Below are positions 8,531 to 8,799 of a stretch of DNA of 64,000 nucleotides, in pieces (positions within the stretch are counted from its first letter, which is position 1; the number at the start of each line of letters is the position of its first letter). A model generated the notes under the pieces. The model searched no databases and was not told the DNA's origin. It was given only the letters and a program-made list of their open reading frames with translations. Origin of the DNA: Negaprion brevirostris (taxonomy: Eukaryota); NCBI GenBank assembly GCA_030324005.1, contig JARDVH010000169.1:12935571-12999570 (forward strand), in the 5' to 3' direction. Made by a program: the position numbers and the translations under genes.

Positions 8531-8622
8531 TTTCTGCCTCGTGTCGCATTAAAAGTCCCTCCGTATTTCTTCCGATTAAGGATGAGAGCAGCAATTTCTG
8601 GTACGTATCGAGCAAACATTGC
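8531..8622 (-). CDS. KCNMA1: KCNMA1 alternative exon 9 (e9alt, mutually exclusive), [30 protein letters not shown](K)
   Basis: 92 nt, same length and phases as exon 9, paralogous peptide; acceptor catgtag|GCA, donor AA|gtaagt; 85 nt downstream of exon 9. Confidence 0.95.
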
Positions 8623-8707
8623 CTACATGCATGAAACAGAAAAAGAAAATGGCATGCAGAGAGTGTTCTACTGCATCAGAGGCAGCAGAGGCGCATGGGA
8701 TACTTAC
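8623..8707 (-). promoter_or_regulatory. 85-nt intron between e9 and e9alt with two RBFOX UGCAUG motifs and a candidate donor-proximal branch point
   Basis: Minus-strand TGCATG at 8653-8658 and 8626-8631; CTGAT with its A at intron position +32 (8676); no AG from +41 to the 3' splice site. Confidence 0.6.
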
Positions 8708-8799
8708 TTTCTTCCATTAACCGCACTATAGGTACCACCATATTTCTTGCGGTTTCCTATTAATTCTATGATTTCAGGGACGTAGCTCGCAAACATGGC
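8708..8799 (-). CDS. KCNMA1: KCNMA1 exon 9 (canonical; S6 end and C-linker), [30 protein letters not shown](K)
   Basis: 92 nt; long polypyrimidine tract then cttcttag|GCC; donor AA|gtaagt; phase 0 to phase 2. Confidence 0.98.

Follow-up and report, generated by a model that had tools for sequence, protein, structure and literature searches.

Exons 9 and 9alt of KCNMA1 in Negaprion brevirostris: a conserved vertebrate exon pair and a probable switch of BK channel conductance

The exon pair and its gene

The window, the whole 64,000-nt stretch of Negaprion brevirostris DNA that was analysed, contains two paralogous exons of KCNMA1 (Slo1/BK), both of 92 nt and both on the minus strand. The canonical exon 9 (8708..8799) encodes the end of S6 and the C-linker, with the EIIE acidic ring and an RKKY motif, and exon 9alt (8531..8622), which corresponds to skate 'exon 11' of splice site 2, carries R317, E321, A323, A324, L327, and again RKKY. 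An intron of 85 nt (8623..8707, minus strand) separates the two, and its positions 41 to 83 are free of AG. Each exon begins in phase 0, leaves 2 nt over and is flanked by a polypyrimidine-AG acceptor and a GTAAGT donor. The pair shares 59 of 92 nucleotides and 22 of 30 residues, the eight changes from exon 9 to 9alt being S317R, I323A, E324A, G327L, Y336F, S337N, V339T, and N340R (residue numbers are those of human Slo1, from alignment to PDB structures). The 9alt peptide aligns to residues 313–342 of human Slo1, at S6 and the C-linker of the solved structures, and is identical at 30 of 30 positions to AJP74816.1, a clone from skate ampullae (10.1101/274449). An earlier note on this DNA had described two same-phase paralogous exons of this length and spacing and named them BK (Slo1) exons 9 and 9alt; its geometry was exact, its translations were as given, and the alignment to human Slo1 and the identity with the skate clone confirm the assignment.

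The frame from exon 8 to exon 10 is kept by exon 9 alone or by 9alt alone. Joint inclusion, which according to the earlier note shifts the frame, indeed leads to a premature stop 6 nt into exon 10, and skipping of both exons or retention of the 85-nt intron results in a stop as well. Products with premature stops are, as a general rule, expected to undergo nonsense-mediated decay.

Upstream in the window, on the same strand and in order, lie exon 8 (23710..23880, minus strand, 171 nt, encoding the pore loop and the start of S6), exon 7 (26903..26978, minus strand, 76 nt), and exon 6 (43411..43486, minus strand, 76 nt). Six more exons (10–15) were located in the 60 kb beyond the window start, collinear on the minus strand and extending through RCK1, with exon 10 sitting 13,260 nt past 9alt. 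Exon 8 matched the Pfam families Ion_trans_2 and Ion_trans, both above cut-off, and Pfam returned no match for the 30-residue peptide of either exon 9 or 9alt. The translation of exons 6–8 is identical to 65 elasmobranch proteins and differs from the chimaera, bony-fish, and bird groups, and the compared exons show no protein difference from six species, sharks and batoids both included. By these comparisons the gene is the elasmobranch KCNMA1, encoding the Slo1 BK α subunit.

The stretch of DNA holding the exon pair has a single match in the genome, and a genome search with the 9alt peptide retrieved exons 9 and 9alt only (2 of 2 candidates). Origin by chance or from a duplicated assembly piece is ruled out by this single match together with the ordered neighbouring exons on the same strand. 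The window includes 18 runs of N, comprising 1,612 bases in all, of which those at 8378–8387 and 8881–8980 come to within about 140 and 80 nt of the exon pair and limit what can be analysed of the neighbouring intron sequence. Stop-free frames of 144–248 codons were also seen within the introns, at 48963–49710 (plus strand), 55088–55834 (minus), 60887–61420 (plus), and 63521–63967 (minus). They are possibly decayed repeat fragments, and a stop-free frame at 49276–49704 gave no match in Pfam.

Conservation and splicing of exon 9alt

Relatives of the pair were gathered by three protein searches, each listing the best 120 hits out of about 5,700, and by a cluster look-up. The 294 proteins collected gave 208 matches to a pattern for 9alt and 92 to one for exon 9; 7 proteins matched neither. 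The set is biased, consisting of close hits and many isoforms of few species, and R317 was built into the 9alt search pattern, so that its invariance arises by construction. Residues E321, A323, A324, and L327, which lie outside the pattern, were found in 208/208 of the 9alt matches listed, and these matches span lamprey, elasmobranchs, sturgeon, bowfin, gar, teleosts, frogs, reptiles, birds, and mammals. Because A323, A324, and L327 are invariant over that whole range of listed matches, e9alt is, on the evidence of the alignment, not a skate invention.

Comparison of e9alt across chondrichthyans and tetrapods, which the earlier note had proposed, also covered the RKKY motif. Among the 208 matches listed, 199 have RKKY, 7 have RNKF, 1 (lamprey) has RRKY, and 1 has RQKY. 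The RNKF that the earlier note gave for mammalian e9alt was correct for all seven mammalian records listed (rodents, bears, and a primate), and RKKY was present in 199 of the 201 non-mammalian matches. Judged from these matches, RKKY is the general non-mammalian state of 9alt and is not peculiar to Negaprion brevirostris. The 9alt peptide is identical to Xenopus and Pelobates models as well as to the skate clone, and the exon 9 peptide is identical to the skate RefSeq protein XP_055517668.1. For canonical exon 9, the first 20 residues are the same in 92/92 matches listed, those of elasmobranchs being equal to those of human exon 9.

Of the 21 elasmobranch species retrieved, 13 have only exon 9 annotated, 2 have only 9alt, and 6 have both, namely the skates Leucoraja and Amblyraja, two Scyliorhinus, and two Chiloscyllium. 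Bowfin and gar also have both forms annotated, and the lamprey record, a rough model, shows 9alt only. A deposited BK sequence from the catshark Scyliorhinus retifer (P0019, AWO14627.1) likewise has 9alt, although shark electroreceptors have been reported to use Shaker-type channels rather than BK (PMC11057056). In 14 vertebrate gene models (P0008 and P0123–P0135), mostly with generic or 'hypothetical' names, both exons are kept in frame with exon 9 shortened at a valine codon. These are likely to be gene-prediction artefacts, a cryptic donor being the alternative, and they were used for the 9alt peptide only.

Direct views of splicing came from sequencing runs without an RNA or tissue label, of which 4 of 24 were compared with positions 8400–8735; runs X9 and X2 gave contigs, and X1 and X7 gave none, which does not prove absence. 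The contigs come from relatives of Negaprion brevirostris, since they differ from the window at 3–5 letters. The X9 contig covers 9alt exactly and its loose ends match exon 8 (25 of 27 letters) and exon 10 (22 of 24), so that in this one contig from a related species 9alt is spliced to both flanking exons and exon 9 is skipped; an X2 contig has 9alt joined to exon 10 (23 of 24 letters), all of these ends being compared by eye. A joint between exons 9 and 9alt was absent from the three contigs, a sample too small to show absence. The second X2 contig runs unspliced across the 85-nt intron, with three listed differences from the window, none of which falls within the TGCATG motifs or the candidate branch point described below. 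The 9alt contig from the same relative departs from the window at five letters; that the intron has no more than these three listed changes, in one contig at a depth of 5.7, hints at constraint. Outside the elasmobranchs, a 425-residue RefSeq model from the barn owl (Tyto alba isoform X30, P0116) has exon 9 followed by 9alt out of frame and a premature stop; joint inclusion is therefore annotated in at least one vertebrate.

The exon pair is real, was correctly read from the sequence, and is already known as the vertebrate e9/e9alt or splice site 2 pair. With skate (Leucoraja erinacea) Kcnma1 splice site 2, where the alternatives are called exon 10 and exon 11, there is no protein-level difference in these exons, and both forms are annotated there as both exons are kept here. 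The position and length of the pair are shared with mammalian Slo1 e9/e9alt (Soom 2008; PMC11758846), and the first 16 residues of mammalian e9alt, including R317, A323, A324, and L327, are identical to those of 9alt in Negaprion brevirostris; the mammalian exon has RNKF and a different linker end, whereas 9alt here has the RKKY of other non-mammals.

The 85-nt intron and the choice between the exons

A candidate distant branch point predicted from the consensus, CTCTGAT, lies at 8675..8681 (minus strand), with its adenosine at 8676, intron position 32. Its distance to the donor of exon 9 is 31 nt, it is predicted to be unpaired with a probability of 0.96, and it is unchanged in the relative's contig. 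Of the two yTnAy motifs in the intron, at positions 32 and 76, the second lies 9 nt before the end of the intron and is altered in that contig. A donor-to-branch distance below 50 nt is the published criterion for steric interference between neighbouring exons (PMC5740500). Since the candidate branch point lies only 31 nt from the donor, steric exclusion backed by the frameshift is favoured as the likely mechanism of exclusivity: there would be too little room between the branch point and the donor of exon 9 for the two exons to be joined, which would enforce a choice of one or the other, and the frameshift and predicted decay of the joint product would act as a backup.

An alternative is that the exons are not sterically exclusive at all, and that both are spliced in with the frameshifted product removed by nonsense-mediated decay alone. 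This would accord with an exon length of 92, which is not divisible by three, with the early stop in exon 10, and with human clusters of mutually exclusive exons, in which 60% have such lengths and 9% have predicted steric interference (PMC5740500). The barn owl model provides an annotated example of double inclusion, and adenosines outside the consensus, at intron positions 53 and 58, could offer other branch points. Against it, the sole well-placed yTnAy is the one at position 32, it is followed by a 43-nt zone free of AG, and it is preserved in the relative. Decay alone is consequently regarded as somewhat unlikely, and steric exclusion with the frameshift behind it is retained as the preferred mechanism. 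The pair in Negaprion brevirostris also resembles the mutually exclusive ion-channel exons treated in PMC5740500, in which introns are short or branch points distant, sharing with them the tandem duplication, equal length and phase, a length not divisible by three, a short intron, and a candidate branch point below 50 nt, although in Negaprion brevirostris KCNMA1 that branch point is predicted only. KCNMA1 was not found named for the steric branch-point mechanism among the literature matches listed.

Two Rbfox-type TGCATG motifs, both putative, are located in the intron on the minus strand, the first at 8653..8658 and the second at 8626..8631, directly before the 9alt acceptor; a putative GCATG (8507..8511, minus strand) comes 20 nt beyond the donor of 9alt. 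Against a TGCATG background of 0.31 per kb in the 124-kb pre-mRNA strand, two copies within 85 nt occur in 4 of 1324 tiles and in 711 of 20000 dinucleotide shuffles. Rbfox proteins as a rule activate an exon upstream of their site and repress one downstream. The pair, noticed post hoc and with modest statistics, may be a lead to the regulation of the locus, Rbfox being reported in an abstract to bind GCAUG; in the proposed mechanism, such motifs in the intron might set the choice of exon. Among the matches listed in the literature search there was none on Rbfox or branch-point control of e9/e9alt, a weak result, as Soom 2008 may cover it.

RNA structure was set aside as a mechanism of exclusivity. 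Shuffles of the 381-nt region fold as well as the region itself (z 0.59), and the intron alone reaches z -2.2, with 11 of 500 shuffles as good. For an 8-bp stem covering the 9alt acceptor, the pair probability varies from 0.06 to 0.99 with the flanks included; pairing is predicted for other acceptors too, leaving no robust signal.

Conductance, gating and use in electroreceptors

Residues E321 and E324 form an acidic ring that attracts K+ to the inner mouth of the pore and thereby doubles the outward unitary current (PMC3105516), in agreement with the earlier note, which had taken the ring to boost BK conductance. Exon 9alt keeps E321, loses only E324 of the ring, and gains R317, with the net charge of residues 313–327 changing from -2 per subunit in exon 9 to 0 in 9alt. 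Skate BK has a unitary conductance of 103 pS versus 269 pS for mouse, both values being cited to Bellono 2017 (PMC13687065, Table 1). According to a second-hand account of the skate work (10.1101/274449), BK from skate ampullae always has the alternative exon at splice site 2, the embryo form is canonical, and point mutations at three charged residues restored a mouse-like conductance. The earlier note gave an R and an A seven residues apart as the reported cause of the low skate conductance; this pair fits R318 and A325 in AJP74816.1, and the secondary source names three charged residues. A switch of conductance by tissue, suggested for this species, has thus already been reported for skate (10.1101/274449) and is not new, and the low-conductance use of e9alt in electroreceptors is likewise published there.

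Gating is also affected at these positions. The I323A substitution reduces the mean open time to 0.20 from 1.2 ms and gives rectification (PMC2292367), and BK gating is very sensitive to the C-linker (PMC7371421). Mouse e9alt, which is expressed in the cochlea and in hair cells, lowers Ca2+ sensitivity, with V1/2 moving from 189 mV in STREX-1 to 147 mV in STREX-1-e9alt at 0 Ca, and from -67 to +17 mV at 100 μM Ca (PMC11758846). By analogy with these channels, 9alt is likely to alter gating as well as conductance.

Collectively, these observations are best explained by a conserved vertebrate e9/e9alt pair in which the choice of exon would give a high-conductance BK channel when exon 9 is spliced in and a low-conductance channel with altered gating when 9alt is spliced in, the latter probably being used in the electroreceptors of Negaprion brevirostris as reported for skate. 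A probability of about 0.88 is assigned to this reading, in which the link to conductance comes from secondary sources. Removal of E324 and gain of R317 would lower the conductance, and I323A would shorten the openings.

It is also conceivable that 9alt is primarily a gating switch, setting Ca2+ sensitivity, voltage range, and open time, with the lower conductance a by-product. The mouse V1/2 shifts and the effects of I323A are in line with this, 9alt also rewrites the C-linker, and among the matches listed A323 and L327 vary no more than R317 and A324 do. However, the mouse data come from an RNKF exon with a different linker rather than the RKKY form, skate conductance was restored by changes of charged residues, and effects on gating and conductance are not exclusive of each other. 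A primary role in gating is accordingly judged unlikely, and the switch between high and low conductance, with altered gating accompanying it, remains the preferred reading.

A broader proposal would make 9alt an ancient pan-vertebrate exon whose choice is hard-wired in the 85-nt intron by the branch point at 31 nt and which two Rbfox sites on either side of the pyrimidine tract repress, so that Rbfox-poor receptor cells (electroreceptors and hair cells) would default to the low-conductance form. Drawn from sequence motifs and conservation, it is speculative and distinctly unlikely. If it were true, the BK of cartilaginous fish outside such receptor cells would conduct like mammalian BK, and the skate point would drop from the published trend of rising conductance towards mammals. 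That trend is set out in a comparative paper of 2026, where the skate 103 pS serves as the cartilaginous-fish value and the word 'exon' does not occur (PMC13687065). Since elasmobranch exon 9 shares its first 20 residues with human exon 9, the sequences make it likely that 103 pS is a property of the isoform rather than of the lineage.

The suggestion that 9alt is a silent leftover duplicate (a pseudo-exon) in Negaprion brevirostris is highly implausible, for although 13 of 21 elasmobranch species have exon 9 models only among the best hits, which annotation or the hit cut-off may explain, the splice sites and frame of 9alt are intact, its peptide matches that of skate, shark, and frog despite the limited nucleotide identity to exon 9, and it is spliced in relatives.

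A literature search did not find stated the invariance of the pore mouth from lamprey to primate, the branch-point and Rbfox anatomy of e9/e9alt, or an isoform-specific caution on the skate 103 pS; these negatives are weak, the most relevant primary studies being outside the search. The available portions of PMC11057056, PMC10486799, PMC5429088, PMC10018040, PMC12713644, and 10.1101/2020.01.27.922161 contain nothing on this exon pair. With the pore-mouth residues invariant from lamprey to primate, a low-conductance BK isoform is likely to be available to all vertebrates, including in their hair cells, and the 85-nt intron offers a compact minigene for how sensory cells choose between the two exons.
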